A DNA stretch of 64,000 nt from a virus: the IMG/VR virus record IMGVR_UViG_3300025646_005470; one strand, written 5' to 3'. Positions within the stretch are counted from its first letter, which is position 1; every line of letters starts with the position of its first letter. Both the position numbers and the translations under genes were made by a program. Below, piece by piece: positions 368-56,453 of the stretch. The notes beneath the pieces are model-generated. The model made no database searches and was not told the origin of the DNA. It saw only the letters and a list, made by a program, of their open reading frames with translations.

Positions 368-575
368 CTAATTCTTCTTCTAGTTTTTTAAGTTTTTTAT
401 CTATTTTTTTATTCAATTTATCAACTTGCTTATTTAGTTGTTTTAAGTTTTCCATGTATTCATTGAACTTATTTAGTGGTAACATATTATTAACTGTTTT
501 AAATTGACTCTGCATAACTTTTTTAATATACAAAGGGTGACGTTTTAAATCAATTATGTTATTTGTTTTGCTCAT
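351..575 (-). CDS. hypothetical protein, C-terminal coiled coil
   Basis: 74 aa ORF overlapping both neighbours; no recognised family. Confidence 0.6.
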   Translation of the reverse strand: MSKTNNIIDLKRHPLYIKKVMQSQFKTVNNMLPLNKFNEYMENLKQLNKQVDKLNKKIDKKLKKLEEELDGKEK

Positions 576-1494
576 ATACTCTTTTTACTACCTTACCAAT
601 ATTTACTCTATTATATGTTTGATCTCTATGAAATTGATCCCATTGTCTATCTCCAAGTGCAATGTGTATACAATTACTTGGTGTTAAATTGTATGTTTTA
701 CAAACTTGTTGCTGTGCTACATGATATTTATTCCATTGATGATCTGGTGTAAAATTACGCATTAATTCTAAACTAATTTGTGTGTTTAAATGACAACCAT
801 GCGACCAATCTGCCTGTAGTGCTAGTCTATCTTTTCTTGCATTTGAATCATATTCTATTGTACCATGTCTTGAAAAACGTATGCCTGCTCTATAGTTTCC
901 TGTGCATAGTCCTTTAGTTGTTGAAAAAGCAACTTCTTGAATTGCAGGATGTGATAAATCTATATTAATACCTTTACAAGTTCCAAACCATGCTATATCA
1001 ACAAATACAGGAACTTTTAATTCATATGCTTGATCAAACATTTCTGTCATCCGTTGATGCTGTGATCCTGTACCACTAAATGGACAACTTATAATAACAG
1101 CATCATTTTTTTCTAATGGACGATCATCTATAAAATCATCATAACTCCAAGGATGAACATCTCTGTTGTAAGGATACTCTCCTTTAAACATTCTTAACTT
1201 TAATCCTTGTTCAAGTATATAATAGTGAAATTCGTCAAGTGATTGTGTTACACCAACTGATGGAAATCTATAATTAAAACTTTCTAATCCTTTTATAGAA
1301 TTTAATTCGCTTGATTCTATCCATGTAGGATAAAAATCTACAAACTCTTCTTGACAGTTTAAATCTCCATTTTTTAAAATTTCATTTAAAAAGTCTTTGT
1401 CTAGTAAGTGTGTGACAAACTCACTATTATAGATAGAGTTACCATTGCGTTTAAACTCTGTGTTTGATTCTGTATACTGTGATTGTTCTGCCAT
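559..1494 (-). CDS. PLP-dependent fold-type I enzyme (aminotransferase-like)
   Basis: VFVDIAW (PLP-binding Asp), FSTTKGL (Schiff-base Lys), following RAG; substrate unknown. Confidence 0.6.
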   Translation of the reverse strand: MAEQSQYTESNTEFKRNGNSIYNSEFVTHLLDKDFLNEILKNGDLNCQEEFVDFYPTWIESSELNSIKGLESFNYRFPSVGVTQSLDEFHYYILEQGLKLRMFKGEYPYNRDVHPWSYDDFIDDRPLEKNDAVIISCPFSGTGSQHQRMTEMFDQAYELKVPVFVDIAWFGTCKGINIDLSHPAIQEVAFSTTKGLCTGNYRAGIRFSRHGTIEYDSNARKDRLALQADWSHGCHLNTQISLELMRNFTPDHQWNKYHVAQQQVCKTYNLTPSNCIHIALGDRQWDQFHRDQTYNRVNIGKVVKRVYEQNK

Positions 1495-8299: not shown

Positions 8300-9550
8300 T
8301 TATATACTCACTGTATTTAAAAAGTCTACCATATCTTTGTGCAGATAATCCACATATGATTGATTTCTATTGATGTCAAAATTAACTATGTCTGTTTTCA
8401 TTTTGTGCCAATGCTGTGATTTATCACTGTCTGCTGTGTCTAAAGAATTTTTAAGATACTGTTTGACTTCACCTAGACTAGCATCATCTAGAGTGTTTAA
8501 ATTATCTAGTACAGATCTAATCATGTAATTTGGTAACCATTTACAAGCAAGAGGACCTTCATATGGATGCACAAAATCAAATGAGAAGTGTATGTCTTTG
8601 TCTACATTTTTGTAGAAGTTTTTGTAGTAATTAACATAATCATATATATTGTGTAGATTGTAAACTGACAACACAAATGCATGTGATATGTCTTTGCAGT
8701 TTACATCTGAATTGACAAATTTTGTAATGCTGTTTTGCAATTTATCAAACGGCATTGGATATCTAATATACTCATAGATTTTGCCTATGCCATCAACGCT
8801 GAACACAGGACTAAAACTTTTAAAGTTATTGATTTTTTCTATTGCTTGATCTGTAAACTTGGTTGCATTTGTAATCACATGCAGATCAATATGCTGTGCA
8901 TGTTTTGTTTCAATTGCATGATCTAAAAATTCTCTAAAACGTTTGCTGACAAAAACTTCACCACCTGTAAACTTAATGTGTTGGCATGTGTCTAGATTAT
9001 TCAACAAGTGCTTCCATTCAGATGGACTAGCCATAGATGTTTTATTATTGTAATCTTCCCAACCTGCAGGTAATTCTACTCCATGTTGTTTAAACAGTTC
9101 ATAATCTTTTTGCAGTTGGTTACTGAGCCATGGAGTACACATTCTACATCGTAGATTACATTCATTGCTTATTTGTATATCATATGAAGTTACCTGTAAA
9201 TTGTTAATTGAAGAAACATACTGCTTGCCATTTGGTGAATATCGTAATCTATCACTGGTACCTGTTTGTGCTTCTCTTTGCCAACAGGTTTTACAAGCAG
9301 AATTTTTTACACCAGACATTGCATCACGTCTTAGTTTTTCAAATGCACTGTGATTAAATATATTTTTGATCTTATTGCCTGGTGCTGTTTCAACTTCGTG
9401 TTTCCACGATTGCCAATTCATAGGATCGTGTTGCGTGTTTTGTGATACACAACAAGGCAATGGCACATTTATTTTACCATCTTTCCATTCTTTAATAGCA
9501 AGACGATGAAATGGATACCAACAAAATGTATTGTCTCTACTAGGTTTCAC
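8300..9550 (-). CDS. radical SAM enzyme with N-terminal twitch/SPASM-like Cys region
   Basis: FCWYPF, PCC, CxxC, CNLRCRMC, FTGGE, SVDG. Confidence 0.88.
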   Translation of the reverse strand: MKPSRDNTFCWYPFHRLAIKEWKDGKINVPLPCCVSQNTQHDPMNWQSWKHEVETAPGNKIKNIFNHSAFEKLRRDAMSGVKNSACKTCWQREAQTGTSDRLRYSPNGKQYVSSINNLQVTSYDIQISNECNLRCRMCTPWLSNQLQKDYELFKQHGVELPAGWEDYNNKTSMASPSEWKHLLNNLDTCQHIKFTGGEVFVSKRFREFLDHAIETKHAQHIDLHVITNATKFTDQAIEKINNFKSFSPVFSVDGIGKIYEYIRYPMPFDKLQNSITKFVNSDVNCKDISHAFVLSVYNLHNIYDYVNYYKNFYKNVDKDIHFSFDFVHPYEGPLACKWLPNYMIRSVLDNLNTLDDASLGEVKQYLKNSLDTADSDKSQHWHKMKTDIVNFDINRNQSYVDYLHKDMVDFLNTVSI

Positions 9551-28007: not shown

Positions 28008-28152
28008 ATTATTAATATAACACAGAATAGAGTTCTGTCAACCAGAAAAATACATAAAAAAATGTAGTAAAATCAATGATTTAATGAAATAAAAGAGACT
28101 AAATCTGCCTTTTTCTGCTATGTTTATTTACAGATTTGCCAAAAAATATTAA

Positions 28153-29409
28153 CTACTGCTTTAACATTGATTTTGTTAAAGATTTTAGTGGTGTATGATT
28201 TTCCATATACTGTGAAAAGTATTGAATTTTTTCTGCTAATTCTCTATTATGAAAAGGCATGTGCCTAGTTATCCAACCTACTATATCATCTGTTTCTTCA
28301 ATTTCTGGATGATAATAATATCTATGATCTCCAACTTGATCACGTATATCTATAAAATTATCAATACACTCTGCAAAAAATTTATCATATGCATATGATT
28401 CTTGTATATTATCTAACATGTTTAAATTAATTATAAAACATTGTCTAACTAGTTCTTTCCCGTTACCTGTTTTCCAACCTGCAATAGGAGTCATCATATT
28501 TAGATTATCAACATAATCAATTATAGAATTATCTTTCCAAACATATCCGCCAAACACAACTAAAACTTTTTCAAACCCTTGTTTTTTTAAACCTTTTAAA
28601 AATTTTAAATCTCCTTTAAAAGGTTGATTTGTTACTGCAATATTTTCAAATCCATGATCTAACATATTAAGAATTGTCATAGACATCATCCAATCAGTTT
28701 GTTTAATAAGAACATGCATATCTTTATTCCAAACTGCATAACAAACTTTGTTATTAGGATTATAATTGTAAACTGTTTTAGTTTTTGCATAGTCTAAATT
28801 TACTGTTAATCTAATTACTAGAGAATTTCTTTCTACTCCTAGTGTAGGCTTATGCCAAGAATTGTTGTTTGACATCATAACATACCCTTGATTAGGTAAA
28901 AACTTTTTTCTATAAATTTCATTATCAAAATTATCTACAAACTGTGTTCCATATTGTTCTAAACTATTATCTGTTGGAAGATAAATTTGAAGTGTAATTG
29001 TTGACAAACTGTCTTTTTGATCAGTATGAGCTTTGTCAATTTGATGCTCATATTCAGTATGAAAACTTATATTTGATGTTGTATTGCTAATCACTTGATC
29101 AATATTTTCAAAATTAAATTTTTTAAGCAATAACCTTTTAAAGTCCTCTCCTTCTATGTGTTTCCATAGATCTTTATAAAAGTCATCAATTTTCTCAAGT
29201 TCATCAAAAGTTATTATTGACGGTTCAACTCCATCAATTGGAAAATCTGAATGTATATATAATTTTTTAAATTTTACAACATCATAAGAAATTTTTTCAT
29301 AATGCTCATTAATAAAGAAACTAGATAAATCAAATGCAGTTACATGATCTTTAACTTCATTAATAACTTTTGCTTTTTTTATTTTTTTGTTTATATAATC
29401 AAACATCAT
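28153..29409 (-). CDS. 2OG-Fe(II) oxygenase-like domain fused to an unknown C-terminal domain
   Basis: AHTD...ITLQIYLP...YGT...SWH (HxD...H triad). Confidence 0.6.
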   Translation of the reverse strand: MMFDYINKKIKKAKVINEVKDHVTAFDLSSFFINEHYEKISYDVVKFKKLYIHSDFPIDGVEPSIITFDELEKIDDFYKDLWKHIEGEDFKRLLLKKFNFENIDQVISNTTSNISFHTEYEHQIDKAHTDQKDSLSTITLQIYLPTDNSLEQYGTQFVDNFDNEIYRKKFLPNQGYVMMSNNNSWHKPTLGVERNSLVIRLTVNLDYAKTKTVYNYNPNNKVCYAVWNKDMHVLIKQTDWMMSMTILNMLDHGFENIAVTNQPFKGDLKFLKGLKKQGFEKVLVVFGGYVWKDNSIIDYVDNLNMMTPIAGWKTGNGKELVRQCFIINLNMLDNIQESYAYDKFFAECIDNFIDIRDQVGDHRYYYHPEIEETDDIVGWITRHMPFHNRELAEKIQYFSQYMENHTPLKSLTKSMLKQ

Positions 29410-29422
29410 GCATCTATTTATT

Positions 29423-29497
29423 TGGTATCTCCTAGGGGAATCGAACCCCTGTTTACGCCGTGAAAGGGCGTTGTCCTAACCGCTAGACGAAGGAGAC
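29423..29497 (-). tRNA. tRNA-Glu(TTC)
   Basis: 75 nt GTCTCCT...AGGAGATACCA, loop CTTTCAC. Confidence 0.93.
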
Positions 29498-29502
29498 ACA
29501 TG

Positions 29503-29724
29503 TTATTTCTTGCTGTATTTCAATTCTATTTTAGCCTGCTCATAAGCATACTGAATTGACCCAAAAAATAAAACTATTCCTATGACAATTAATATTCCGT
29601 ATCCTGGATTATCCAATGCAGATCCAATAAACTTTCCACCTTGAAAAATTAACCAACCAAATCCAATTGACGATAATATGTACATTATTGCTTTTAGTAA
29701 ATGTTTAAAAAAATATTTAGACAT
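29503..29724 (-). CDS. small membrane protein
   Basis: Two TM helices; GAGAGG SD. Confidence 0.6.
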   Translation of the reverse strand: MSKYFFKHLLKAIMYILSSIGFGWLIFQGGKFIGSALDNPGYGILIVIGIVLFFGSIQYAYEQAKIELKYSKK

Positions 29725-29778
29725 AATAATAACCTCTCTTGTTATAATGTTAATAGTAGTTTATATAATAGCATGATA

Positions 29779-31002
29779 CTAGATATTGTCAAGAGCCTCT
29801 TTTAATAATGGTACAACATTTTCTAAAGATTGATTGCGTGATTTATCTACTTCTGCTGTATATTCAATAAATTTGCTTGTATGTTTAGTCCAATCTTCTG
29901 CCATCATATAATCAATTAATCCTTTTACCTTTGGTTTATTAACCCAAGGTTCTAAACGTTTAACAGCAATTTGCTTTAAATTATCTGGCAATACTCTTAC
30001 ATTTAAATAATCTGGATGATTGAGTATATTTAGATATGGAAAATATCCAAATTTTTCTGTATATTCAAAAAGTTTATTTAGATCAAGTATATTGTAGATC
30101 TGTACCGTAGTATGAACTTGCACTCGCATTTTGCCTTGCTTTTCCATTTCATAAAATGCTGACAAATTTTTATTAACTGACTTCCAATTTGTTGGATATC
30201 TAATATATCTGTTTAATTCATCATATGCATCAATAGAAGCATTTATTTTTATTTTTTTAAAATGTTTCCAATACTCAACCATTTTAGGTGGTATATTGGT
30301 TAAGTTAGTATTGTACTTTAAAGTAATGTCTTTGGCTTTGTCTAATTCAATACAACGATCAAACAATTTGTATTGTTCAAGTGCAAGTGTTGGTTCTCCA
30401 CCTGTTAGATATATTTCTTCTACTGTATCAATTACTGTCATCAAGTGTTTCCATAATTTTGGATTTTGTGGCCAATCCATGTTAGACAATCTGTCTTTTT
30501 CTTCTTGCTCAATATCTTTACCATCGTAAGAAGTAAGATTATTCCATTCTTCTATCCATTGATTACTAGACCAAGGATTACACATTCTACACTTTAAATT
30601 ACATAAATTGCCCAAACGCAAATCCACATACACTGCTTTAAGTGGTGCTGTTCCATCTTCAGATGTAGACGCTATTGCTTCATTTATATGATTAGCATAT
30701 TGATCATTGTAACTTAATCTAGCAGATTTTATACCACTTGCTTCTTCTCTCCAACAACGCACACATACTTTTGGTTTTTCGCCAGTTAGCATTTGCTTTC
30801 GCAAATTTTTATAGTCTGGAGCATTCCATACTACATCTGGTGAGGATCGATGTATTTTATATTCTTTGTTGTTTTCATCTCTAATAGTATTTTTACCAGG
30901 GGTAGAATTACAACAAAATCTATAATTACCTGTAGATGTTGTAGCAATATGTATCCAAGGTAATATGCAAAATGTATCAGACTGTTTCATAAGTTTCCTC
31001 AA
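29779..31002 (-). CDS. radical SAM enzyme (twitch/SPASM-like)
   Basis: FCILPWIH, FCC, CVRC, CNLKCRMC, LTGGEP, YNTN, SIDA. Confidence 0.92.
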   Translation of the reverse strand: MRKLMKQSDTFCILPWIHIATTSTGNYRFCCNSTPGKNTIRDENNKEYKIHRSSPDVVWNAPDYKNLRKQMLTGEKPKVCVRCWREEASGIKSARLSYNDQYANHINEAIASTSEDGTAPLKAVYVDLRLGNLCNLKCRMCNPWSSNQWIEEWNNLTSYDGKDIEQEEKDRLSNMDWPQNPKLWKHLMTVIDTVEEIYLTGGEPTLALEQYKLFDRCIELDKAKDITLKYNTNLTNIPPKMVEYWKHFKKIKINASIDAYDELNRYIRYPTNWKSVNKNLSAFYEMEKQGKMRVQVHTTVQIYNILDLNKLFEYTEKFGYFPYLNILNHPDYLNVRVLPDNLKQIAVKRLEPWVNKPKVKGLIDYMMAEDWTKHTSKFIEYTAEVDKSRNQSLENVVPLLKEALDNI

Positions 31003-32275
31003 ATAATTCTTTTAATTCAGGTACAACACTTTTAATATCTGTATTTCTTATAGTATCTAAATCTTTTGTAAATTGTACAAATTCTTTTAAATGTTTTTTA
31101 TTATATGTATTTAGAACTTGTAAATTTTTCATTATACTACCAAATCCTACATCACCTTGACTAAATATTCCTTCGTTTGGGTCTCTATCTTGAGGCCAAT
31201 AATCTCCTTGTGGAACATCTGCATTTCTCAATAATTCATATGCTTTTAGTTTTAGATTATTAGGTAGTATTTGAAAATTTAAATACGCAGGAGTAACAAC
31301 AACATTTTTAAAATATATTTCGTTAGTTGGTTTTCTTATTTTTAAATACCATTTCCATATATCTGCTAAATTAAAAATATTATAAGTTTGAACTGTGACT
31401 GTGTATATAATTACTGTGTTTGGTAATTTATTAAATTCATTAATATTATTTTCTAACTGATCAATTGTAAAACTTTCGCCGCCTCTAATATACTGATATA
31501 AATTTCCTGTACCTTCTAAACTTATATGCAGTTTTACTAATTTAAAATTTTTAGCAATGTTTACTAATCTTTTATTCATAAATGTTCCGTTAGTATTGAT
31601 ATCAAGCATAATATTTTTTGCTATATCCCATTCTATAAACTGTTCCATTAGTTGATAATTTTGTTCTTCCATTAGTGGTTCACCGCCTGTTAATTTTAAA
31701 AACTGTAGATCTTTAAAATATTCTTTCTTTTCTAAAACATTTTTTATAACATCAAAATCAACTTTAGAATATTTTCCAGTTGATCGTTTAGGCATCCAAC
31801 TTGGTGAAATTTGTTGTAATTGTGTTTCATCTTTTATCCATGTACTAGAAACTTGCCCACTACACATTCTACATTTTAGATTACATTTATTTGATGAATT
31901 AATTTCTAAATACCAAATATTTGGTTGTTCATTTGTATTATAAGTAGCAGTTTTTAAAAGTTCAGCTGGTAAATTTCTATAAAAATACTGTCTTCTTGAA
32001 TTTCCTACTGTACTTTCTTTTTTTACACATTTTAAACATATTTCGCTATGTGGTAATCCTTGTTCCCAAGATTTGCGAAGTTCAACAGCAACAGGAGAAT
32101 TCCATAAATCAGTTAGTGTGCTTTTATAAACACTTCCATAAGGCTTTGATGCTACAGCATCAGCATACACATTACCGTTCCAATCAATTGTAAGACTATG
32201 CCATGGCGCTATACACTTTTTATCAATTGTTTTGTGCCAATCCCAATCTCTTTTTTTCCACTCTTGATTATCCAT
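30977..32275 (-). CDS. radical SAM enzyme (twitch/SPASM-like)
   Basis: CIAPW, CLKC, CNLKCRMC, LTGGEPLM, INTNGT, SLEG. Confidence 0.92.
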   Translation of the reverse strand: MDNQEWKKRDWDWHKTIDKKCIAPWHSLTIDWNGNVYADAVASKPYGSVYKSTLTDLWNSPVAVELRKSWEQGLPHSEICLKCVKKESTVGNSRRQYFYRNLPAELLKTATYNTNEQPNIWYLEINSSNKCNLKCRMCSGQVSSTWIKDETQLQQISPSWMPKRSTGKYSKVDFDVIKNVLEKKEYFKDLQFLKLTGGEPLMEEQNYQLMEQFIEWDIAKNIMLDINTNGTFMNKRLVNIAKNFKLVKLHISLEGTGNLYQYIRGGESFTIDQLENNINEFNKLPNTVIIYTVTVQTYNIFNLADIWKWYLKIRKPTNEIYFKNVVVTPAYLNFQILPNNLKLKAYELLRNADVPQGDYWPQDRDPNEGIFSQGDVGFGSIMKNLQVLNTYNKKHLKEFVQFTKDLDTIRNTDIKSVVPELKELFEETYETV

Positions 32276-33360
32276 TAAAAATAGTTTTCTTGTTTGCCTT
32301 TACGTCTTACATCTGATGTTAAGCAATGTACACCACCGTCCCAAAAATATTGATGTCTGAATTTCCAATATATAGGTGTAACACCATGTTTTTCTAATTG
32401 TGCAAATACTTCTTTATCTGCACCTGTACAAATAACCTTGTCTTCTGATATACTTAGAACATTTACATCAAACACTGTTTCATCTACATATCCAATCCAA
32501 TGCGATAACCAACGTTCAATATAGTCTTTGTAGAATCTTTGTTTACGTGTGTTTTTAAAATCTTCAGGAAACTTTGTACCTTTGCCACCAACAACAATAC
32601 AATCCCATGATTTAAGTTTTTTTGGCAACCAATCTTTTTTCCATGTCATTAGTAGTCCTGGTTTAAGCAGTGCAATCTTGCCATCAACATGCCCGCCCAC
32701 AGGAACTTCATTGAATGTAAATTCAGGTAATTGTTGCTTGTACCACTCTAACCCCTGTTCTGTGCCTTTGCCTTTTTCTGGATCTTTTTGATTTGACTGT
32801 GAATGAAATATATCTTTACCACATTTAATTAAATTAGCAGAATGAAACAGTACTTCTCCGTTGCGATAATAGTCTTCATAGGTTTTTCGATTTAACTGTG
32901 GCTGTGGCATAGATATCCATTCTGCACCATGCATGTAATATTCTTTTAGTATGTCTCTTGAACATAGTGTTTCTAAGTATCTTGATGTGTCTTTTGTATA
33001 TGCTTCTATGATTTTATTACCAAAGAAGCCAATTAAATCTCTTGGTTGTAGAGGTTGATTAATATACTCTATTTCAAACTCACCCACTGTGTATTTCTGT
33101 AAAGGATTGTGTAGAGGTTTTGGTCTTTGTACAACAATATTTTCTTTTTTAAGAATATCAACCAGCACTTCTAAATCTTCTGCTGTTTCTGTTAGTACTC
33201 TTTTTAATAAATCTTTTGCTTCTTGATTAAATCTATCACTTGAATCAAAAGTGTTTGGATCGTAAGGTGTGCCAACAACAACTTCTTCCAAAGGTTGGAA
33301 TTCTGTGTATGAACTTACCAACGGTTTATTGCCAAAAAATTTACTATAATCATTTACCAT
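32275..33360 (-). CDS. amidinotransferase (glycine/inosamine-phosphate amidinotransferase family)
   Basis: LEEVVVG, PRD, GHVDG, FDVNVLSI, WDGGVHCLTSDVRR (catalytic His/Asp/Cys). Confidence 0.9.
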   Translation of the reverse strand: MVNDYSKFFGNKPLVSSYTEFQPLEEVVVGTPYDPNTFDSSDRFNQEAKDLLKRVLTETAEDLEVLVDILKKENIVVQRPKPLHNPLQKYTVGEFEIEYINQPLQPRDLIGFFGNKIIEAYTKDTSRYLETLCSRDILKEYYMHGAEWISMPQPQLNRKTYEDYYRNGEVLFHSANLIKCGKDIFHSQSNQKDPEKGKGTEQGLEWYKQQLPEFTFNEVPVGGHVDGKIALLKPGLLMTWKKDWLPKKLKSWDCIVVGGKGTKFPEDFKNTRKQRFYKDYIERWLSHWIGYVDETVFDVNVLSISEDKVICTGADKEVFAQLEKHGVTPIYWKFRHQYFWDGGVHCLTSDVRRKGKQENYF

Positions 33361-33950
33361 TATTTTTCAAACTCTTTACTATCGTAATTACTGTCGCGAT
33401 ATCTTCTTTTAACAATAGCATCGTAGTATTTTTTATCCCAATTTTCATAGTACTTTGTATGTTTGTGTAGCCATTTAGATTTTTTGTTTAAATCATCTAG
33501 TGTTTGAATTAAAATAATTGCTAGACCTTGATTTCCAGAATCTAATCCAACTACAGGTCCTTGTTCAGCACCAGTTGATTTTTGTTTTTCTTCTGACATG
33601 TATGATGAAAAAATATATAAATTTTTTTCTACTGCTTTACTTTGATTTTGATCTTCCCACTGTTCTAACTGTTCTAGTGTATAGTTTTTTGGATCTCCAA
33701 TACACACCACAAGTTTTTTATCTGTTGGGTAATTTTTTATTACTTTATCTGCTTTGTCAAACATATCTTGCTTGACCCAATGAACTGCTATTTCATTTTT
33801 GGCAAACCCAGCACCAGCAAATGGACAAATAGGCATCCCGTTTAATTCTTTGCGAGTTTTAGTAACATGATCTTTCATATCATGCCACTTGCGTTCTAAA
33901 TTAGATTGTTCCGCCATCTGCAAGTTCTCTTTCAAGTTTTTCATCAACAC
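33360..33950 (-). CDS. conserved-looking hypothetical protein (DUF1415-like CPFA motif)
   Basis: PICPFA; YYENW; true start may be MAEQS. Confidence 0.55.
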   Translation of the reverse strand: MLMKNLKENLQMAEQSNLERKWHDMKDHVTKTRKELNGMPICPFAGAGFAKNEIAVHWVKQDMFDKADKVIKNYPTDKKLVVCIGDPKNYTLEQLEQWEDQNQSKAVEKNLYIFSSYMSEEKQKSTGAEQGPVVGLDSGNQGLAIILIQTLDDLNKKSKWLHKHTKYYENWDKKYYDAIVKRRYRDSNYDSKEFEK

Positions 33951-35370
33951 TTTCAGTTGCTTGTGCTTTTACTAGGTTATCTTTTGACTCATCAAGTAAT
34001 TCAGCCATTTCAGGAAATGTTTCAGCAAAGTTAGTGTTTCGTTGTTTGTCAAATTTTGTTATGTACTCTCTAAACTGAGGCATACGCTGTGACCAATCTT
34101 CACTCATCATAAATTTCACCATGCCTTGTAATCTTTTAATACCGTAATCTGCTTTCATAAATTCTTCTTTAGATGGTGCTCCTGATATCTGCCAATTTTG
34201 TTCTAACCAAGGATAAAAGTTTTCATACTTTTGTTTGACTTGATCTTTAAACCATTGCGGTAATATTTTTACATTTAAATGCCCAGGCCAATACACAAAA
34301 TGATAGTTGATCATACCTGCACCAAATGGCCATATGTTTATCTTTTTGAAATTTTGTTCTAGTTTCCATTTGATAAAATCTGGTATATAATAAATGTTTA
34401 GTGCCTGCACTGCACAGGCCACAGTGACTTCAACTTTATCTTCTGTGTTGTCCAACAAATGAAACTGTTTAACTGTGTGATCCCATTTTGAAGGAAAACG
34501 TATATAGTCATTCATTTCTCCTATTGAGTCTACACTATAATGAAATCTTACTCTTTTAAAATGACTCCATAAATCAAATAATCTTTGTGGCATTTCTAAA
34601 CCATTTGAATTATAACGTAACTCAATCTTTGGAGCATATCCACGTTTGATAACTTCTTCTAACAGTGTATAGTGTTCTTCGATGATAGTTGATTCACCAC
34701 CTGCAAAGTATAATTGATACATGTGTGGAATTTGTTCATATAGTTGATCCCAAAACTTTGGATTATCTTTGTGCCAATTGTAGTTTGCACCATGCATTTT
34801 ACCTTTGTTATCCCAACCCATGGTTTGTTTTAGATCTAGATTTTCAATAGTAGGATATACATCTAACCAATCTTTTACCCACAGTGAACTATCATGTGGT
34901 GAACACATGATACATTTTAGATTACATTTAGATCCCATACGCAGATCTAAGTATCTAATTTTAGGTGGAATAGATCCGTCTTCTGCTGTTTCACCTATGA
35001 TTTCATCAATGTCATATCTGTTTAACCAGTAGTCTGTTTCCCATTGTCGTTTACTTAAATGTCCTGCTGATTCTTCTTTATAACATTTTAAACAACTTGC
35101 TGGCATTTCTCCATTTAGCATCTGCTTACGAACATTTTTCATATAGTCATTGTTCCAAGCAGTCATTAGATCTGAATTGTTTAGATTTGCTGGTACACCT
35201 TCTGCTGTTTTAAGCACACCAACTTGCCCACCATGTTTTTTATCATTAGTAGCACCTACTGAACTTGCATTAGCAGTACAACATACTCGCATGTTACCGT
35301 CTGGTCTCGTTGAAAGATGCATCCACGGTAATGCACAAAAAGTCTTAGATGGTAGTTTTTTATTGTTCAT
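33901..35370 (-). CDS. radical SAM enzyme (twitch/SPASM-like)
   Basis: FCALPWMH, VCC, CLKC, CNLKCIMC, FAGGE, YNSNG, SVDS. Confidence 0.92.
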   Translation of the reverse strand: MNNKKLPSKTFCALPWMHLSTRPDGNMRVCCTANASSVGATNDKKHGGQVGVLKTAEGVPANLNNSDLMTAWNNDYMKNVRKQMLNGEMPASCLKCYKEESAGHLSKRQWETDYWLNRYDIDEIIGETAEDGSIPPKIRYLDLRMGSKCNLKCIMCSPHDSSLWVKDWLDVYPTIENLDLKQTMGWDNKGKMHGANYNWHKDNPKFWDQLYEQIPHMYQLYFAGGESTIIEEHYTLLEEVIKRGYAPKIELRYNSNGLEMPQRLFDLWSHFKRVRFHYSVDSIGEMNDYIRFPSKWDHTVKQFHLLDNTEDKVEVTVACAVQALNIYYIPDFIKWKLEQNFKKINIWPFGAGMINYHFVYWPGHLNVKILPQWFKDQVKQKYENFYPWLEQNWQISGAPSKEEFMKADYGIKRLQGMVKFMMSEDWSQRMPQFREYITKFDKQRNTNFAETFPEMAELLDESKDNLVKAQATESVDEKLERELADGGTI

Positions 35371-35372
35371 TT

Positions 35373-36470
35373 TTATATATTTACCTTTTCAAATTGACTG
35401 CCAAAAGGATCAAATTCTGTTCCACATTTTACAGCACACACTTTTAGTTTACCATCTGCACCTGTACAAGATGTTTTTGACCAACTGTCCATTATGTTTT
35501 TAAAGAAGTCACCTTGCATGACTTTTTCAAATCCATGATTTAAAACTGATAAAGAATCTAATCCGCCTACGCCTTCAATAAATCTCCATATTTGATTTTG
35601 TCCTGGTTTTTCCCACCATTTGTATATTTGTCCTGCTGTCCAACAACAAGGAAATAAATGACCAGATGCACTAACATAAATGTTGTTATCTTTTAACACT
35701 TTACAATTTATTTTTGCTTGGTCATAATAGTTGTTCATAGAACCATATTTTTCTACCAGTGTTGATTCTTTTTTAAGTGCAGGATTTAGATATTTTTCAT
35801 CTGGCTTTGTGAGTTTTTGTGTTTGTTCACCTTTGCGATTTACACCTTGATGTTCATCTTTGCCTTTAGCTTTTGTATTACTAAAAAATCTACCTGTTTT
35901 TTTACTCATAAATTTTTCAAAACCCATGCGTTTAGACAGTGCTTCTGCTTGTTCTACTTGATGTTCATTGTGACCAAATATCAAATAATCCCATCTTGCC
36001 CTACCACCAGCATCTATAAATGCTTGTGCAGAATCCATGCATATATCCCAATTAACATTTTGTCTATACAAATGATTTGTATCTTTTAATCCATCTAAAC
36101 TAAAAATCACATGACCTTTTTGTCCAATTGTTTTTGCGAGTTCACGCCACCATTCTGGTTTTTTAGCACCAGCATTTGTGTTCATACTCAACCATATGTT
36201 TGGATTTTCACTGCGTAGATACTGCATAACTTCTAGTGATTCTTTTGCAATCACAGGATCACCTAGGTTACCACACATAAACAAACTGTTGAGTTGTTTT
36301 ACAAACTCTGGTTGGAATATACGTTTACAGTCTTCTAAAGATAATTCGTTTAATTCTATATTAGGATTTATTTCGCCACCGTTGATATTTCTATCACATT
36401 GTAAACAAGCGGCTTGACACTTGGCTGTGATTTCTAAATGAACTGTTTTAATATCATGGTATGCGTACAT
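35373..36470 (-). CDS. radical SAM enzyme with C-terminal SPASM/twitch
   Basis: CQAACLQC, CGNLGDP, NTNAG, FSLDGL; FPCCW...CAVKCG. Confidence 0.92.
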   Translation of the reverse strand: MYAYHDIKTVHLEITAKCQAACLQCDRNINGGEINPNIELNELSLEDCKRIFQPEFVKQLNSLFMCGNLGDPVIAKESLEVMQYLRSENPNIWLSMNTNAGAKKPEWWRELAKTIGQKGHVIFSLDGLKDTNHLYRQNVNWDICMDSAQAFIDAGGRARWDYLIFGHNEHQVEQAEALSKRMGFEKFMSKKTGRFFSNTKAKGKDEHQGVNRKGEQTQKLTKPDEKYLNPALKKESTLVEKYGSMNNYYDQAKINCKVLKDNNIYVSASGHLFPCCWTAGQIYKWWEKPGQNQIWRFIEGVGGLDSLSVLNHGFEKVMQGDFFKNIMDSWSKTSCTGADGKLKVCAVKCGTEFDPFGSQFEKVNI

Positions 36471-36471
36471 T

Positions 36472-37359
36472 TTACTTTATTCCTATTAACATATACCTTG
36501 TATATTTTCCAAGTATTAAACTGCCTCCATAAAAGTATGTTGTCATAGGAGCAATTGTTTTAAAATGATCTACATCATCAACACAATTAATATGTTCTGG
36601 CAATGCTTTATAATCGTTTGATTGTAGAATACATAATTTACCTTTTGGAATACTAGCCCACCATTTATCCCAATTTTCTATATGTTCGCAACTTGTATTG
36701 ATAATTGTGTTTGGTTTATCAAATAATTCTCGCTCTGTACCGTTTGATCTTAGTGTTGTGTATGCATATTCATTGAAATTAATTTTGTGTATGTCTTGTG
36801 TTGTTGCTTTAAATTTCCAATCATCCATTACCCACGGCTTGTTAAATGTTTCAGCAATACGCCAACAATTTTCGTCAATGTCAAAACTTCTTATTTTATC
36901 TAAGTGTATTTTACTAGACTCAAACAACATAGTTGCTAGTGTACCATACCAACCTGCACATAAAAATACTGTACCTAAATGAAGACTTGTTTTTTCAAGT
37001 TCAGATACCAACCATTTTTTACTGTGCAATTGACCTCTACTGAAACAATCATTATCAATTTTTATATCATTTACAAAAAAATTTTTAAATGCTTTTACAA
37101 ACTGTGTTTGAGCATATTGATCCAGTACTGGCCAAACTCCCCATATATGATCATCCATTATAAAACGTAATAAATTTTCTTTATTATTATTATCAATTAT
37201 ACGTACTATACTAGATACATCTTTGTCAATATATGCTCGTCTAAGATCTTTTAATTCTTCTATATTATCATACAATAATTCAAATCTATCTAATAACTCG
37301 TGCGTTTCTAGACGAGACTTGAATTTTGTTGAACTGTTGCTCAAGCCAACCAAAGTCAT
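36472..37359 (-). CDS. class I SAM-dependent methyltransferase-like protein
   Basis: FLCAGWYG (motif I-like), RSFDID, INTSCEH. Confidence 0.65.
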   Translation of the reverse strand: MTLVGLSNSSTKFKSRLETHELLDRFELLYDNIEELKDLRRAYIDKDVSSIVRIIDNNNKENLLRFIMDDHIWGVWPVLDQYAQTQFVKAFKNFFVNDIKIDNDCFSRGQLHSKKWLVSELEKTSLHLGTVFLCAGWYGTLATMLFESSKIHLDKIRSFDIDENCWRIAETFNKPWVMDDWKFKATTQDIHKINFNEYAYTTLRSNGTERELFDKPNTIINTSCEHIENWDKWWASIPKGKLCILQSNDYKALPEHINCVDDVDHFKTIAPMTTYFYGGSLILGKYTRYMLIGIK

Positions 37360-38017
37360 TTATCTTACTCAATGCCTCCATATTATTTTTATTTGTTTCG
37401 CCGTATTCTCTACCAGCAATAGCACCTGCAATAGCATACTCGCCAAAGCCTCGTTCACTGCCTACTGAACACCATATGTTTAATCTCTGTTCTGTTTCTG
37501 CATCTTTTTGTTTGTCAATCACTTTTGATGCTAGTTTTGTACATTCTCTAAATGCTGATTTAAATGTGTTGAAAGGATCTGTATTAAATGCCGTTGTGTT
37601 ACTGATAGTTGGCATTGCCTTAAATGCACCTTTTTTGCCTTCTTTGTTTGCAACTGATGTTGTAAAATCAATACGCCAATCTTTTGCATCACGTAGAGCC
37701 TGTGTTGGAAACAATTTAACACCACCATAGCCATACACTAGATCATTTATAGGATTTCTACATCTCCATACATGAACACAGTGTTCATCCCATTTGCTCG
37801 GTTTAAATGAAAAATCAAAATAATCTTCTAGATCAGCATCTGCATCTACTACATAAAAACTTTTTGTGTAGGCCAATTCAGCACAACGTTTGTGTGCTTC
37901 AAAAATTCCTTTTACTCCTTGTACTCTACGAGCATAAGGAAACTTACTCAAAAGTTTTTCCCATGTTTGATCAGCATAAGGTTCTTGATAACTCAAATGA
38001 AATATATCTAAAGCCAT
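37286..38017 (-). CDS. glycosyltransferase-like protein (GT-A)
   Basis: YVVDADA (DxD), GYGGVKLFP; ATG 6 nt after TTGATT-17-TATAAT (38024-38052). Confidence 0.65.
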   Translation of the reverse strand: MALDIFHLSYQEPYADQTWEKLLSKFPYARRVQGVKGIFEAHKRCAELAYTKSFYVVDADADLEDYFDFSFKPSKWDEHCVHVWRCRNPINDLVYGYGGVKLFPTQALRDAKDWRIDFTTSVANKEGKKGAFKAMPTISNTTAFNTDPFNTFKSAFRECTKLASKVIDKQKDAETEQRLNIWCSVGSERGFGEYAIAGAIAGREYGETNKNNMEALSKINDFGWLEQQFNKIQVSSRNARVIR

Positions 38018-38035
38018 GTCTATATTATACTTGGT

Positions 38036-38248
38036 TTACTGTTTAAAATCAAGAGGAAATGCACTAAGACTCAAAGTTTCTATATCTGGATATTTCAGTT
38101 TAATTAAAAAGTACTGTTCTTCTGTAACCAATATAATATCATTAGCAAAGAACTTAAAACTGGTTTTTTGAATGCTTGTATCATCTAATAGTTTTTGATG
38201 TTTTTTAATATCGCGATATCCAACTGATCTATAACTAACGTTTTTCAA
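38036..38248 (-). CDS. hypothetical protein
   Basis: 70 aa, overlaps clpP stop. Confidence 0.45.
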
Positions 38249-55318: not shown

Positions 55319-55729
55319 CTATATCTTTCCAGCTTCCGTTAACTTTGTACGGTTTTTAAGATGTTGTTCTTGAACATCATCTTTGCTTTGTCCATTATAT
55401 AATACTGCGTAGCCTTCGTCAACCATTTTTTTATTAATGGTTGTATTTTCCCAGACTAGTTCTCCTAGTATACGGCCAAATTTTCCTGTTGCATCTTTGT
55501 GTGTTCTAAGTACTGCCATACTACCGGTTGGATAATGGTCTTTTAAATATTTTTTAGATAATAGTCCAAAACGTTTTTCTTCTAGATCTCTAGTTCTTGA
55601 TTCGGGAGTATCTATTCCTAATAATCGTACACGTTCTTTGTGTCTCCATATTCCAAATCCTAAATCAATATCTACATCAACAGTATCACCGTCTATTACT
55701 CTTAATATTTTACAACTATATTCGTGCAT
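55319..55729 (-). CDS. thermonuclease (SNase-like)
   Basis: VIDGDTV, RLLGIDTPE, GKFGRILG. Confidence 0.88.
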   Translation of the reverse strand: MHEYSCKILRVIDGDTVDVDIDLGFGIWRHKERVRLLGIDTPESRTRDLEEKRFGLLSKKYLKDHYPTGSMAVLRTHKDATGKFGRILGELVWENTTINKKMVDEGYAVLYNGQSKDDVQEQHLKNRTKLTEAGKI

Positions 55730-56453
55730 TTCTTTTTATGTTTCCTATTGTTTTTTTTATACTTTTGTTATATTCATGTTTTGCTTTTTTTAAATCAACT
55801 GTATTTAGTTGAGCTACAATATAATATACTGTTTGATCGCTCAAATTACGTGCTGTAAAATAATTTCCTGAATCAAGTTGAATTGCTGATCCAGATTCAG
55901 TTGGAATTTTACCAATGTAATCTTTATCTTTTAGTTTAGTTTTGTCCATTGGGTTTGGATTAAACATAACAACATCATAGTACTGTGGACTATTAAGTAA
56001 AAACTTTATTACATTAAAACTATGATGGTCAGTTTCTTTATTTTTATGAAGCTCAATATGTCCTTGAGGCTCTAGTGCCATTATCTCTATTTTTTCTTTT
56101 GACCCAAAATTATAATCTTTTGAAAAAACTTCTCTAAACCATTTTGTCATAGCAGGGCAACACTCTATTACTTTTTCATTCCATTCGCCATCATATGCTA
56201 TAATACTTTTCCAACCATGGCTGTATTCATTTTTATGTGGTTGAAAAAGATTAAATTTATCTAATCCTTTTATTTCATTTTCCCAAGTTTGCCAACTGTA
56301 GCCAATATCTAATTCAATCCAAGGAAAATTTTTAATTAAATTTTCATAATCATCTGATTCATTTATTTCGATAATTTTTTGAATCTTATAATGCTCTCTA
56401 TTAATTAATGGAAGAGACCAGATATCATTTCCTAGATAATCAGGGATAAACAT
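55716..56453 (-). CDS. cupin / aspartyl-asparaginyl beta-hydroxylase-like oxygenase
   Basis: GWKSI, MALEPQGHIELH; canonical HxD not clean. Confidence 0.5.
   Translation of the reverse strand: MFIPDYLGNDIWSLPLINREHYKIQKIIEINESDDYENLIKNFPWIELDIGYSWQTWENEIKGLDKFNLFQPHKNEYSHGWKSIIAYDGEWNEKVIECCPAMTKWFREVFSKDYNFGSKEKIEIMALEPQGHIELHKNKETDHHSFNVIKFLLNSPQYYDVVMFNPNPMDKTKLKDKDYIGKIPTESGSAIQLDSGNYFTARNLSDQTVYYIVAQLNTVDLKKAKHEYNKSIKKTIGNIKRNARI

Follow-up and report, generated by a model that had tools for sequence, protein, structure and literature searches.

Organisation of the operon

The window, a 64,000-nucleotide stretch of DNA (IMG/VR record IMGVR_UViG_3300025646_005470), comes from an uncultured giant marine phage and carries a tightly packed eight-gene enzyme operon (Table 1). 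Positions of ORFs were recomputed, and the eight co-oriented genes, g1 to g8, were found to occupy 29779-38017 on the minus strand, overlapping or abutting exactly as described in the first-pass annotation: g1 and g2 overlap by 74 nt, g2/g3 and g3/g4 are separated by gaps of 1 and 2 nt, g4/g5 overlap by 17 nt (with the g5 ATG start at 33917), g5/g6 and g6/g7 by 1 nt each, and g7/g8 by 26 nt. Their products are a GT-A-fold protein, a Rossmann/methyltransferase-like protein, a SPASM-type radical SAM enzyme, three N_Twi_rSAM proteins, a C-P-F-A protein and an amidinotransferase, and all look soluble, the 73-aa product of the nearby g9 being the exception at the locus. The operon is made up of two modules of differing distribution, Module A (g1-g4) and Module B (g5-g8), and the region 28153-38017 is not a self-contained unit, as pathway partners are encoded at three other positions in the window.

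Table 1. Positions of the features discussed, with the basis of each assignment
Feature	Position	Strand	Basis
Sigma-70-like promoter match upstream of g1, TTGATT-17-TATAAT	38024..38052	-	10/12 positions match consensus
g1, 243 aa, GT-A-fold (nucleotide-diphospho-sugar transferase) protein	37286..38017	-	AlphaFold model, Foldseek, VIA
g2, 295 aa, Rossmann-type, putative methyltransferase-like	36472..37359	-	alignments A5, A8
g3, 365 aa, radical SAM, SPASM/twitch-like C-terminus	35373..36470	-	Pfam, NCBIfam, phrog_21308, Cys positions
g4, 489 aa, N_Twi_rSAM, most conserved paralogue	33901..35370	-	NF033640, 442 bits
g5, 185 aa from ATG (196 aa from GTG at 33950), C-P-[FY]-A protein	33360..33917	-	alignment A4
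g6, 361 aa, amidinotransferase of AGAT/StrB1/SxtG/HsvA family (pentein fold)	32275..33360	-	homology, alignment A1
g7, 432 aa, N_Twi_rSAM paralogue	30977..32275	-	NF033640, 272 bits
g8, 407 aa, N_Twi_rSAM paralogue	29779..31002	-	NF033640, 416 bits
g9, 73 aa, small hydrophobic protein	29503..29724	-	two TM segments predicted by eye
tRNA-Glu (UUC)	29423..29497	-	tRNA prediction
g10, 418 aa, putative 2OG-Fe(II)-oxygenase-like N-terminal half	28153..29409	-	motif read from sequence
PLP fold-type-I (aminotransferase class I/II-like) enzyme, 311 aa, S-T-T-K194	559..1494	-	homology, model
Fourth N_Twi_rSAM gene, 416 aa, divergent	8300..9550	-	NF033640, 233 bits; long branch in tree
245-aa homologue of PF05118 (Asp/Asn beta-hydroxylase-type) oxygenases	55716..56453	-	tblastn, phmmer

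A single promoter at 38024 had been proposed to head the operon. The consensus match is present, and the site is a consensus match only, promoter-like sites being no more frequent in the window than in shuffled sequence (59 vs 64) and stronger matches preceding g9 and the gene after g10; the single promoter is thus unproven. Small ORFs at the locus were inspected, a 70-aa ORF upstream of g1 and g9 among them, and none was precursor-like, in line with the earlier observation; both of these ORFs are conserved in close relatives only.

Module A proteins

The g1 protein has an invariant D58-x-D60 motif and a helical, family-specific C-terminal half, and gave no match in Pfam, NCBIfam or PHROG. Its AlphaFold model (pLDDT 88.5) was matched by Foldseek in the PDB to GT-A enzymes only (E about 4e-4; PcManGT, WrtF, ppGalNAcTs, SunS, ThuS and PBCV-1 A64R), and a VIA-wide search returned Z scores of 11.2-8.6 across residues 1-145, with IspD/MobA nucleotidyltransferases matched too. 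The fold and the invariant motif bear out the initial glycosyltransferase-like label. The g1 family comprises 3374 matches, almost all viral. In g2, a variable helical N-terminus precedes a conserved Rossmann-type domain with motifs CAGWYG 134, SFDID 158, TQDIH 187 and NTSCEH 221 (alignments A5 and A8). Of the methyltransferase-like assignment made at first, only a GxG/acidic Rossmann-type motif was recovered; the Pfam search returned no match and PDB profile matches were weak (SDR 0.087, thermospermine synthase 0.42), so the role is putative.

The radical SAM enzyme g3 carries an N-terminal CX3CX2C motif (C18, C22, C25) and a C-terminal SPASM/twitch-like cluster (C256, C275, C276, C335, C345, C349). 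It scored 26.8 bits against Pfam Radical_SAM, slightly below the cut-off of 29.5, matched phrog_21308 at 9.5e-21 and SPASM maturases partially in NCBIfam, and is homologous to gp083, gp084 and gp080 of phage CP220 (4e-18 to 5e-8). In g4 the auxiliary-cluster domain is N-terminal to the radical SAM core, and five N-terminal Cys are invariant; a Pseudobdellovibrionaceae MAG and distant phage contigs encode homologues with 64% identity to the protein, and its orthogroup has a support of 100. The NF033640 (N_Twi_rSAM) cut-off is 170 bits, so that the scores of g4, g7 and g8, with the Cys motifs of g3, confirm four radical SAM genes in the operon and their twitch-type assignment.

Module B proteins

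The C-P-[FY]-A motif of g5, noticed in the first-pass annotation as CPFA, is kept without exception in homologues from phages and bacteria (alignment A4). The family is small (32 clusters) and has no Pfam entry or known family, the sole ESM Atlas lead being DUF6875, on 11% of one cluster. The gene lies directly upstream of the amidinotransferase gene, a position retained in four Bdellovibrionota loci (L016, L019, L020 and L023). Identification of g6 as an amidinotransferase held, with matches to SxtG (8e-29), HsvA, StrB1 and AGAT. Its motifs are P-R-D108, H224-x-D226 and H345-C346, and all 26 family members aligned share the guanidino-binding and catalytic residues D108, H224, D226 and C346 (alignment A1); the position of AGAT Asp254 is taken by His172 in g6 and by His in the majority of the family, so that transferase chemistry cannot be taken for granted.

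The g7 protein has three invariant N-terminal Cys only (C21, C80, C83) and, in loci of phages and bacteria alike, is encoded after the amidinotransferase; in its orthogroup (9 rows, support 98) most members have the amidinotransferase immediately upstream. Five N-terminal Cys are invariant in g8, the orthogroup of which (8 rows, support 99) contains phage and Bdellovibrionota members. Separate, well-supported orthogroups with phage and bacterial members and group-specific Cys patterns indicate that the g4, g7 and g8 paralogues do different jobs. To our knowledge, no N_Twi_rSAM member has a known reaction.

Partner genes elsewhere in the window

In the window, 27 kb separate the PLP enzyme gene from the operon. 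Elsewhere, in phage contigs as well as in Bdellovibrionota, it adjoins the amidinotransferase gene, and the window copy is 46-49% identical to these cluster-resident copies. Its model (pLDDT 94.3) was matched by Foldseek to PLP aminotransferases or decarboxylases throughout (3e-10 and weaker) and by VIA with Z of 20-21.6 along ~280 residues; the resemblance is to amino-acid-type class I/II aminotransferases (TyrAT, HisC, CobD, RohP/MppP), not to DegT/BtrS-type sugar aminotransferases. Natural fusions with N-twitch radical SAM enzymes occur in both orders (radical SAM-PLP in P0260 and P0265, PLP-radical SAM in P0264), which argues for consecutive steps on one substrate. The 245-aa protein was negative in its own Pfam scan and matches PF05118-positive proteins of Bdellovibrionota clusters, which such oxygenases fill, at down to 8e-10.

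Distribution and neighbourhoods

Hundreds of phage contigs carry genes of the operon, as do predatory bacteria of the Bdellovibrio type, and the whole operon is colinear in five relatives. Identity across the core set is 49-55% in other phage contigs and 43-49% in Bdellovibrionota. Unconserved gene order or co-occurrence had been named beforehand as grounds for abandoning the pathway; both are conserved.

Module A is a very common phage cassette. Among 44 well-flanked phage loci with g1, a radical SAM gene is present in 40, an N-twitch gene in 39, g3 in 33 and g2 in 28, and g2 also accompanies g1 in Ralstonia phage RsoM2USA. Recurrent neighbours are a carbamoyltransferase (13 loci), UDP-Glc/GDP-Man dehydrogenase (10), NAD epimerase/dehydratase (8), tail fibres with a Peptidase_G2 chaperone domain (12) and further GT-A paralogues of g1; in small phages the cassette lies directly behind tail-fibre genes. 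In a complete 328-kb relative, 14 N_Twi_rSAM genes occur alongside genes for a carbamoyltransferase and an epimerase/dehydratase, as well as a second unit of the GT-radical SAM-radical SAM type.

Module B is rare in phages; chromosomal clusters of Bdellovibrionota have it too, with an orthologue of each gene. Nine Bdellovibrionota loci, and the distant phage contigs L007-L011, have the amidinotransferase, g7-type radical SAM and PLP enzyme genes next to one another. The bacterial copies are chromosomal, one on a 917-kb contig, without phage replication genes, and the clusters examined lack g1, g2 and any nucleotide-sugar gene. Campylobacter phage CP220 links two genes annotated as nucleotide-diphospho-sugar transferases with those for an amidinotransferase, a PAP2 phosphatase and radical SAMs of the g3 type (PMC2853527).

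Proposed pathway and alternatives

With a probability of about 0.5, the operon encodes a pathway that tailors a sugar or sugar-like polyol in the cytoplasm for a putative acceptor, and Module A would, as part of that whole reading, form the centre of a glycan toolkit widespread among phages. Most likely a sugar hydroxyl is turned into a guanidino group and the sugar is then attached to a putative target. The function of the pathway is uncharacterised in the literature searched, as first supposed. The radical SAM enzymes of Module A would remodel the (nucleotide-)sugar, g2 would probably methylate it, and g1 would transfer the tailored sugar to its acceptor, for which a virion (tail-fibre) protein or a glycan of the host envelope is the most plausible candidate. 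Module B and the PLP enzyme could install the guanidino group in three steps, for which we infer the following order: an N-twitch radical SAM enzyme would oxidise C-OH to C=O in the manner of BtrN or DesII, the PLP enzyme would transaminate the ketone to an amine, and g6, with g5 as a possible accessory subunit or substrate-presenting partner, would move the amidino group from arginine, the presumed donor, via a Cys346 thio-uronium intermediate. Oxidise-aminate-amidinate logic is known from BtrN and BtrS (2-deoxystreptamine), DesI/DesII, and StsC and StrB1 (streptidine); the proposed steps resemble it, and the PLP enzyme fused to N-twitch radical SAMs fits the BtrN/aminotransferase/StrB1-like scheme guessed earlier.

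A sugar substrate, one of the options first listed, is favoured by these fusions and by the cassette neighbours (carbamoyltransferase, UDP-Glc/GDP-Man dehydrogenase, NAD epimerase/dehydratase and GT-A paralogues). It is weakened by the lack of a nucleotide-sugar gene in the operon and in the Bdellovibrionota clusters examined, which also lack g1 and g2, by the amino-acid type of the PLP enzyme and its distance from the operon, by the absence of a known N_Twi_rSAM reaction, by the putative role of g2, and by the g1 fold, which is also that of nucleotidyltransferases. SPASM/twitch radical SAMs and PF05118 hydroxylases are, moreover, at least equally typical of peptide or protein substrates. The radical SAMs, hydroxylases, PLP enzyme and amidinotransferase might modify side chains of an unrecognised peptide or of a protein, for instance a tail fibre, by anSME-like conversion of Ser/Thr to a carbonyl, transamination, amidination and then glycosylation by a ppGalNAcT/SunS-like GT-A enzyme. 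This is unlikely, yet the foremost of the alternatives: most SPASM/twitch radical SAMs are peptide or protein maturases, as are the weak NCBIfam matches of g3, g7 and g8, and the PF05118-type homologues in the bacterial clusters and the window, the amino-acid-type PLP enzyme, the SunS, ThuS and ppGalNAcT matches of g1 and the cassette position behind tail-fibre genes all favour it. Against it, neither a conserved precursor-like ORF nor an RRE domain for leader binding, a protease or an exporter was detected, the dehydrogenase, epimerase and carbamoyltransferase neighbours indicate sugar chemistry, and known amidinotransferases use small-molecule substrates. A diffusible guanidino compound (a modified amino acid or polyamine, or one resembling an aminoglycoside or cyclitol) that the phage, and likewise the predatory bacteria, would direct at competitors, host defences or prey is a slightly weaker candidate. 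The closest solved relatives of g6 (SxtG, HsvA, StrB1, AGAT) all make small molecules, the module is common to two kinds of predators of Gram-negative cells, and a cyanophage amidinotransferase, radical SAM maturase and AHBA-synthase-like gene have been listed as 'antibiotic synthesis genes' (PMC12801897); but neither a scaffold-forming enzyme (cyclase, NRPS, PKS) nor a gene for an exporter or for self-resistance was seen, tight linkage with one to four GT-A paralogues and tail-fibre regions suggests a macromolecular acceptor, and the virion proteome of cyanophage S-SCSM2R contains a distantly related amidinotransferase (27% identity; PMC12801897).

Remodelling of lipid or of the lipid A/LPS core of the host envelope, with Kdo, lipid A or ornithine lipids as example targets of hydroxylation and amino-group chemistry, is improbable, and overlaps the sugar-tailoring pathway if the acceptor is an envelope glycan. 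LpxO-type lipid hydroxylases belong to PF05118, the distant S-SCSM2R amidinotransferase adjoins kdsA, kdsB and 2OG oxygenases, the CP220 module includes a PAP2 phosphatase, and host O-chain modification was proposed for a GT-rich region in pelagimyophages (PMC7029224); the operon proteins, however, look soluble, and there was no sign of a gene for an acyltransferase, a flippase or a Wzx/Wzy-type protein. Least probable of all is a glycosylated, methylated or guanidinylated base that shields phage DNA from restriction. Modified guanines occur in Campylobacter phages carrying an analogous module, and phage radical SAMs (QueE, thymidine hypermodification pathways) and glycosyltransferases do act on DNA; but two of the three hallmarks searched for in the complete 328-kb relative, ThyA-type dNMP hydroxymethylase and TGT/DpdA, are absent (the Tet/JBP search was empty, its control likewise giving no match), the same module sits in Bdellovibrionota chromosomes without phage replication genes, and the cassette lies among genes for tail fibres and sugar-nucleotide enzymes. 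The modified-base option of the first-pass annotation finds no support; its uncharacterised tailoring pathway and its amidinotransferase and twitch-type radical SAM assignments are supported, its methyltransferase and 2OG labels being putative.

Features downstream of the operon

A strong promoter-like site of its own (29792-29765) precedes g9, which shares 38-44% identity with its counterparts in close relatives. Beyond the tRNA-Glu gene, g10 may form a separate transcription unit. The 2OG-Fe(II) fusion described there is a putative one: the gene, the tRNA and an H128-x-D130...H186...R-x-S motif in the N-terminal half are present, a Pfam search gave no match and relatives of g10 (L011:94-720 and L023:10484-11086) reached 2OG-FeII_Oxy_3 at sub-threshold E values of 0.005 and 0.03. 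The C-terminal half has no recognised family. In locus L006, g10 is tandemly duplicated within a single 864-aa ORF.

Locus organization

The operon lies in part of a large AT-rich phage genome (~33% GC) whose minus strand carries nearly all genes in the window, which also includes six tRNAs together with ClpP, ClpX, aldehyde dehydrogenase and DNA ligase genes. The eight-gene co-oriented block described in the first-pass annotation is present, running from 38017 to 29779, and its ORFs all overlap or abut, with overlaps of 74, 17, 1, 1 and 26 nt and gaps of 1 and 2 nt at the junctions. Putative translational coupling across g1-g8 is visible from the sequence. A 54-nt gap past g8 is followed by a 73-aa hydrophobic ORF (g9), tRNA-Glu and a 418-aa ORF (g10). 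The operon adjoins clpP and is distant from every fibre gene in the window. A comparison of the 10-kb region with 50,697 phage records by megablast gave no nucleotide match.

The same annotation had placed a single promoter at the head of all eight genes. A TTGATT-17-TATAAT match does lie before g1, but it does not establish a single promoter for g1-g8; promoter-like matches occur no more often than in shuffles, and better matches precede g9 and the gene after g10.

Features of the locus and of the wider window, with their assignments
Feature	Coordinates	Strand	Assignment or description	Remark
g1	37286-38017	minus	predicted GT-A fold	module A
g2	36472-37359	minus	methyltransferase-like protein	module A
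g3	35373-36470	minus	radical SAM protein	module A
g4	33901-35370	minus	N_Twi_rSAM protein	module A
g5	33360-33917	minus	C-P-F-A protein	module B
g6	32275-33360	minus	putative amidinotransferase	module B
g7	30977-32275	minus	N_Twi_rSAM protein	module B
g8	29779-31002	minus	N_Twi_rSAM protein	module B
g9	29503-29724		73-aa hydrophobic ORF	two-TM
g10	28153-29409		2OG-Fe(II)-like protein
PLP enzyme gene	559-1494		predicted PLP fold-type-I enzyme	module B
Further N_Twi_rSAM gene	8300-9550		N_Twi_rSAM protein
Promoter-like match before g1	38052-38024		TTGATT-17-TATAAT
Sigma-70-like match before g9/tRNA-Glu/g10	29765-29792		TTGACA-16-TATTAT, extended TG	among the region's best two
Sigma-70-like match before the 231-aa gene following g10	28014-28041		TTGACA-16-TATATT, extended TG	among the region's best two
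Low-GC stretch	28001-32000		g10, g8 and most of g7
UV damage endonuclease gene	1817-2848		UvsE-type	just upstream of PLP gene
Sugar-phosphate isomerase gene	2839-3369		RpiB/LacA/LacB	just upstream of PLP gene
1053-aa protein	11395-14556		cytidylyltransferase-like and NT5C domains

Radical SAM enzymes

Full-model scores against NF033640 (N_Twi_rSAM; curated cut-off 170 bits) were 442 bits for g4, 272 for g7, 416 for g8 and 233 for the further gene outside the operon. These four proteins thus belong to a family, 'twitch domain-containing radical SAM protein', that is a name without an assigned reaction, and no member above the cut-off was found in 14 model genomes. The CX3CX2C radical SAM motif reads CNLKC(I/R)MC in all N_Twi_rSAM proteins examined, and in g4, g7 and g8 a SPASM/twitch-like Cys domain is located N-terminal to the CX3CX2C core. 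Five N-terminal Cys are invariant in the g4 and g8 groups and three (C21, C80, C83) in the g7 orthogroup, which suggests that the auxiliary cluster of g7-type enzymes has an open or non-Cys ligand site. A PDB search with g8 as a single sequence gave no significant match to solved radical SAM enzymes.

In a quick maximum-likelihood tree (IQ-TREE, SH-aLRT support) built from 61 N-twitch proteins, g4, g7 and g8 fell into three separate orthogroups with support of 100, 98 and 99, respectively, each holding both phage and Bdellovibrionota rows, which indicates that the N-twitch paralogues are old and not interchangeable. The remaining radical SAM protein, g3, carries CX3CX2C at residues 18-25 and six C-terminal Cys; it scored 26.8 against Pfam Radical_SAM, just under the cut-off of 29.5, had no SPASM match and matched phrog_21308 at 9.5e-21. 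Four N-twitch genes with unannotated neighbours were also observed in one block (161.5-168.3 kb) of the cultured 255-kb Vibrio phage K566 (locus L111).

Amidinotransferase, g5 and PLP enzyme

Full-length matches of g6 to solved amidinotransferases were obtained for SxtG (8.3e-29), HsvA (2e-28), StrB1 (6.8e-28) and AGAT (2.5e-26); PF02274, and Pfam overall, gave no match. Residues C346, H224, D108 and D226 of g6 align to the catalytic Cys, the catalytic His and the two guanidino-binding Asp of AGAT, which we take to be C407, H303, D170 and D305, and are invariant across the 26 family members aligned. The third triad residue, presumably Asp254 of AGAT in 'FDAADF', is absent from g6, where the motif reads F-H172-S-A-N; across the g6 family His predominates at this position, and Glu or Asp occurs in only a few proteins. 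On sequence evidence, g6 is assigned to the AGAT/StrB1/SxtG amidinotransferases of the pentein superfamily, with an unusual triad. Its upstream neighbour g5 belongs to a small family (32 clusters, none annotated) with an invariant C-P-[FY]-A motif, and had no match in Pfam, NCBIfam or PHROG and nothing significant in a PDB profile search. An ESM Atlas lead to DUF6875, based on 11% of one cluster, failed confirmation.

The window also encodes, far from the operon, a homologue (46-49% identity) of a ~315-aa protein of Bdellovibrionota loci. Pfam gave no match for the window protein. A model of it (pLDDT 94.3, 80-sequence alignment) returned at least 500 Foldseek matches, of which the 50 listed were all of PLP fold-type I (best 3.1e-10) and the top ones were tyrosine and histidinol-phosphate aminotransferases and CobD; structure comparison with VIA gave Z scores of 20-21.6 over ~280 residues. 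K194 (the Schiff-base Lys of S-x-[ST]-K) and D166 (the pyridine-N Asp) are at least 90% conserved in 80 sequences. The product is accordingly modelled as a PLP fold-type-I enzyme. A full HMMER search of 1.8 billion representatives collected 862 clusters of this family, including natural fusions to N-twitch radical SAM domains in both orders (radical SAM then PLP in P0260 and P0265, PLP then radical SAM in P0264); these fusions are the strongest evidence that a radical SAM and a PLP enzyme act in succession.

GT-A protein, methyltransferase-like protein and 2OG-Fe(II)-like protein

No match to g1, g2 or g10 was found in Pfam, NCBIfam or PHROG, and single-sequence PDB searches with g1, g2 and g8 returned noise only. 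An AlphaFold model of g1 (pLDDT 88.5, 40-sequence alignment) had Foldseek matches that were all GT-A (best 3.8e-4). In a VIA-wide comparison, residues 1-145 gave Z scores of 9-11, with B4GALNT1 (11.2), STIV A197 (10.6) and WrtF (10.3) accompanied by SpsA, SunS, Mimivirus R699/R655 and PBCV-1 A64R, and IspD/MobA-type nucleotidyltransferases matched within one Z unit of GT-A. The DxD motif D58-x-D60, in 'VVDADAD', is invariant in 40 sequences. ESM Atlas placed g1 among unnamed viral clusters, the nearest named one being GT2, at only 0.88. By its model, g1 is predicted to have a nucleotide-diphospho-sugar transferase (GT-A) fold.

The methyltransferase-like g2 has conserved Rossmann-type GxG/acidic motifs (CAGWYG and SFDID); PDB profile searches with two alignments gave nothing significant, the weak matches being to an SDR (0.087) and thermospermine synthase (0.42). 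Between the window and its close relatives (L003-L005) the length of the protein varies from 295 to 354 aa through helical repeat units of the type 'FRKAVLE.N.H.IFRVL' inserted in its N-terminal part, and its C-terminal domain is nearly invariant. The sequence of g10 reads H128-x-D130, H186 and R-N-S, resembling the 2OG-Fe(II) pattern HxD...H...RxS; two of its relatives matched 2OG-FeII_Oxy_3 at 0.0046 and 0.026, both below cut-off. In the complete 328-kb relative (L006), the g10 homologue is tandemly duplicated within one 864-aa ORF (13958-16549).

Distribution and modular composition

Five IMG/VR contigs are colinear with the window from aldehyde dehydrogenase through clpP and g1-g10 on to ligase, with amidinotransferases 79-93% identical; one of them is a complete genome with terminal repeats (L006/G001, 328,149 bp). 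Five remoter phage contigs (49-55% identical) keep g3, g4, g6, g7 and g8, some also g1 and g2, and carry additional N-twitch paralogues, with as many as eight within 21 kb. Across 185,579 species representatives, cellular carriers of the g6 subfamily were limited to MAGs of Bdellovibrionales, Bdellovibrionia and Pseudobdellovibrionaceae (43-49% identical), one copy sitting on a 917-kb contig. The genes flanking these bacterial amidinotransferases encode a homologue of g5, radical SAMs of the g7 and g3 types, N-twitch paralogues (up to nine), several oxygenases of the PF05118 (Asp/Asn beta-hydroxylase) type and the ~315-aa protein, which has no Pfam family. Annotation of the unassigned ORFs in the Bdellovibrionota clusters, RsoM2USA and K566 gave almost nothing, the exceptions being PF05118 hydroxylases, a Ser/Thr kinase and unrelated flanking genes.

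The g1 family gave 3374 matches, nearly all viral, and is highly conserved (50-60% identity), with at least 600 matching stretches in IMG/VR. Co-occurrence was counted at those of the best 80 g1 loci with flanks of 5 kb or more downstream and 3 kb or more upstream (n = 44): a radical SAM homologue was present in 40, an N-twitch protein in 39, g3 in 33, g2 in 28 and the amidinotransferase in only one. Recurrent neighbours included NodU/CmcH-type carbamoyltransferases (13 loci), DUF6071 (12), tail fibres with a Peptidase_G2 chaperone domain (12), UDP-glucose/GDP-mannose dehydrogenases (10), NAD epimerases/dehydratases (8), a family that looked GT8-like by eye and, commonly, extra g1 paralogues. 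Module A (g1-g4) is accordingly a widespread phage cassette, and module B (g5-g8 with the PLP enzyme) an add-on that phages have in common with the predatory bacteria. The sole cultured phage in the collection with both g1 and g2 is the Ralstonia jumbo phage RsoM2USA, in the order gp350 (g1 paralogue), gp349 (N-twitch radical SAM), gp348 (g1) and gp347 (g2-like).

The complete relative carries 14 N_Twi_rSAM genes above the cut-off and seven weaker radical SAM matches, in clusters at 74-86, 95, 105, 116, 145-148, 181-184 and 290-296 kb. In this genome another g1 paralogue directly precedes two radical SAM genes, forming a second GT-radical SAM-radical SAM unit, and a carbamoyltransferase and an epimerase/dehydratase are also encoded. 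Two small ORF families absent from the window's operon were seen in other phage loci: one of ~73 aa between g2-like and g3-like genes at five loci (including L061, L052 and L093), and one of 116 aa upstream of GT genes at 28 loci.

Comparison with known systems

BtrN with BtrS (2-deoxystreptamine) and StsC with StrB1 (streptidine) in the aminoglycoside pathways, and likewise DesI/DesII, follow a logic of oxidation, amination and amidination at a sugar or cyclitol C-OH. By analogy, the window would supply the same types of enzyme as the aminoglycoside pathways: a twitch radical SAM, a PLP aminotransferase and an arginine-dependent amidinotransferase of the g6 family. The likeness to BtrN/DesII-type dehydrogenases would be one of mechanism only; the auxiliary-cluster domain is N-terminal in the window's enzymes (Pfam SPASM at residues 12-97), unlike the C-terminal one of BtrN/DesII-type proteins, the PLP enzyme is class I/II-like rather than DegT-like, and there is neither a cyclitol synthase or kinase nor any orthologue. 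In chlorovirus PBCV-1, A064R combines a GT-A domain with a methyltransferase and decorates the virion glycan. This virus-encoded GT-A domain is among the g1 fold matches, whereas the PBCV-1 system has no radical SAM, PLP or amidino chemistry.

A close parallel in gene content is in Campylobacter phages CP220 and CPt10, for which five-radical-SAM clusters and a putative glycine amidinotransferase, function unassigned, have been described (Timms et al. 2010, PMC2853527). As in the window, CP220 has a co-oriented block of radical SAMs, an AGAT-type amidinotransferase behind a small unassigned protein, and nucleotide-diphospho-sugar transferases. Matches of g3 to gp083, gp084 and gp080 and of g6 to gp086 are at only ~25% identity, and these homologues adjoin annotated sugar transferases and a PAP2 phosphatase. 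Unlike in the window, the radical SAMs matched in CP220 are g3-type, its other proteins giving no match to g4, g7 or g8; its GT-A proteins are not g1 homologues, and the PAP2 phosphatase is an addition.

Glycosyltransferases, UDP-glucose dehydrogenase and 'radical SAM cassettes' have been listed, without enzyme-level analysis or an amidinotransferase module, in the tail-fibre hypervariable region of pelagimyophages, where host O-chain modification was proposed (Zaragoza-Solas et al. 2020, PMC7029224). Two core genes of pelagimyophages and cyanomyophages (marine T4-like phages), Asp/Asn beta-hydroxylase and bS21 (PMC7029224), are also present in the window, but the pelagimyophage cluster lies beside tail fibres and the operon studied here beside clpP. 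Twelve radical SAM genes have been reported in one T4-like genome of marine origin (Nishimura et al. 2017, PMC5332604), and a remotely related amidinotransferase in a cyanophage virion proteome (2025, PMC12801897). Literature searches on N-terminal SPASM, on phage twitch radical SAMs and on the pairing of radical SAM and amidinotransferase yielded no functional study, and none of the papers found gives a reaction for any of these enzymes.

Proposed function and alternatives

The feature is a conserved gene cluster, putatively for sugar tailoring, made up largely of enzyme families without known reactions. By analogy with the aminoglycoside pathways, we give a probability of roughly 0.5 to a route in which a radical SAM enzyme would oxidise a secondary alcohol of a sugar, the oxidised product would undergo PLP-dependent transamination, an amidino group would be transferred from arginine, and the sugar would then be passed to an acceptor. 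A sugar with a final acceptor is suggested by the GT-A protein and the methyltransferase-like g2, and at other loci by the carbamoyltransferase and the sugar-nucleotide enzymes. The sugar reading is weakened by the lack of a sugar-nucleotide gene in the operon or the bacterial clusters, by the amino-acid type of the PLP enzyme and by the unusual amidinotransferase triad. It is also weakened by the PF05118 hydroxylases and SPASM-type enzymes, which would suit a protein substrate equally well. A protein or peptide as the substrate is judged improbable. A search for a precursor peptide, less systematic at very short ORF lengths, turned up only two small ORFs, the 70-aa one upstream of g1 and g9; both are confined to close relatives, and neither has a core-like repeat or Cys/Ser/Thr enrichment. 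A particular version, in which the toolkit would install an arginine-like post-translational modification common to phages and predatory bacteria, is more doubtful. Like anSME, an N-twitch radical SAM would oxidise Ser/Thr to a carbonyl, in this case on a virion (tail-fibre) protein or one in contact with prey, the fused or adjacent PLP enzyme would turn the carbonyl into an amine, the amidinotransferase would make a guanidino side chain, and the GT-A protein and other enzymes would decorate it further.

A free guanidino metabolite as the product is judged slightly less probable still than a protein substrate. Remodelling of envelope lipid or LPS is given little credence, and DNA hypermodification marginally less: the complete 328-kb relative lacks ThyA-type and TGT/DpdA genes, and the amidino module also sits in bacterial chromosomes. 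A Tet_JBP search of the same relative gave no match and was uninformative, as the control likewise gave none.

The sharing of the amidino module between phages and Bdellovibrio-type predators points to a chemistry that helps in attacks on Gram-negative cells or in disguising the attacker. Should the product prove to be a glycan on virions or host envelopes that carries guanidino or methyl groups, phages would have a surface chemistry of a new type, with a bearing on host range, superinfection exclusion and marine Fe-S economy. N_Twi_rSAM, with its 14 copies in a single phage genome and its presence on hundreds of aquatic phage contigs, is a family without a known reaction; the radical SAM-PLP fusions and the cultured phages RsoM2USA and CP220 open the question to bench work, and K566 is a further culturable system.

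Composition and neighbouring genes

GC content falls to 0.27-0.28 across g10, g8 and the greater part of g7, compared with 0.33-0.36 in the surroundings, and these genes show the lowest conservation in close relatives (58-80% identity versus 82-96% for g4 and g6). This end of the operon seems to have undergone faster evolution or past exchange. Elsewhere in the window, the PLP gene is preceded by genes for a UvsE-type UV damage endonuclease and an RpiB/LacA/LacB sugar-phosphate isomerase, and a 1053-aa protein joins a cytidylyltransferase-like domain and an NT5C 5'-nucleotidase domain to ~650 residues without assigned function; cyanophage 'cytidylyltransferase' genes match its first domain only.
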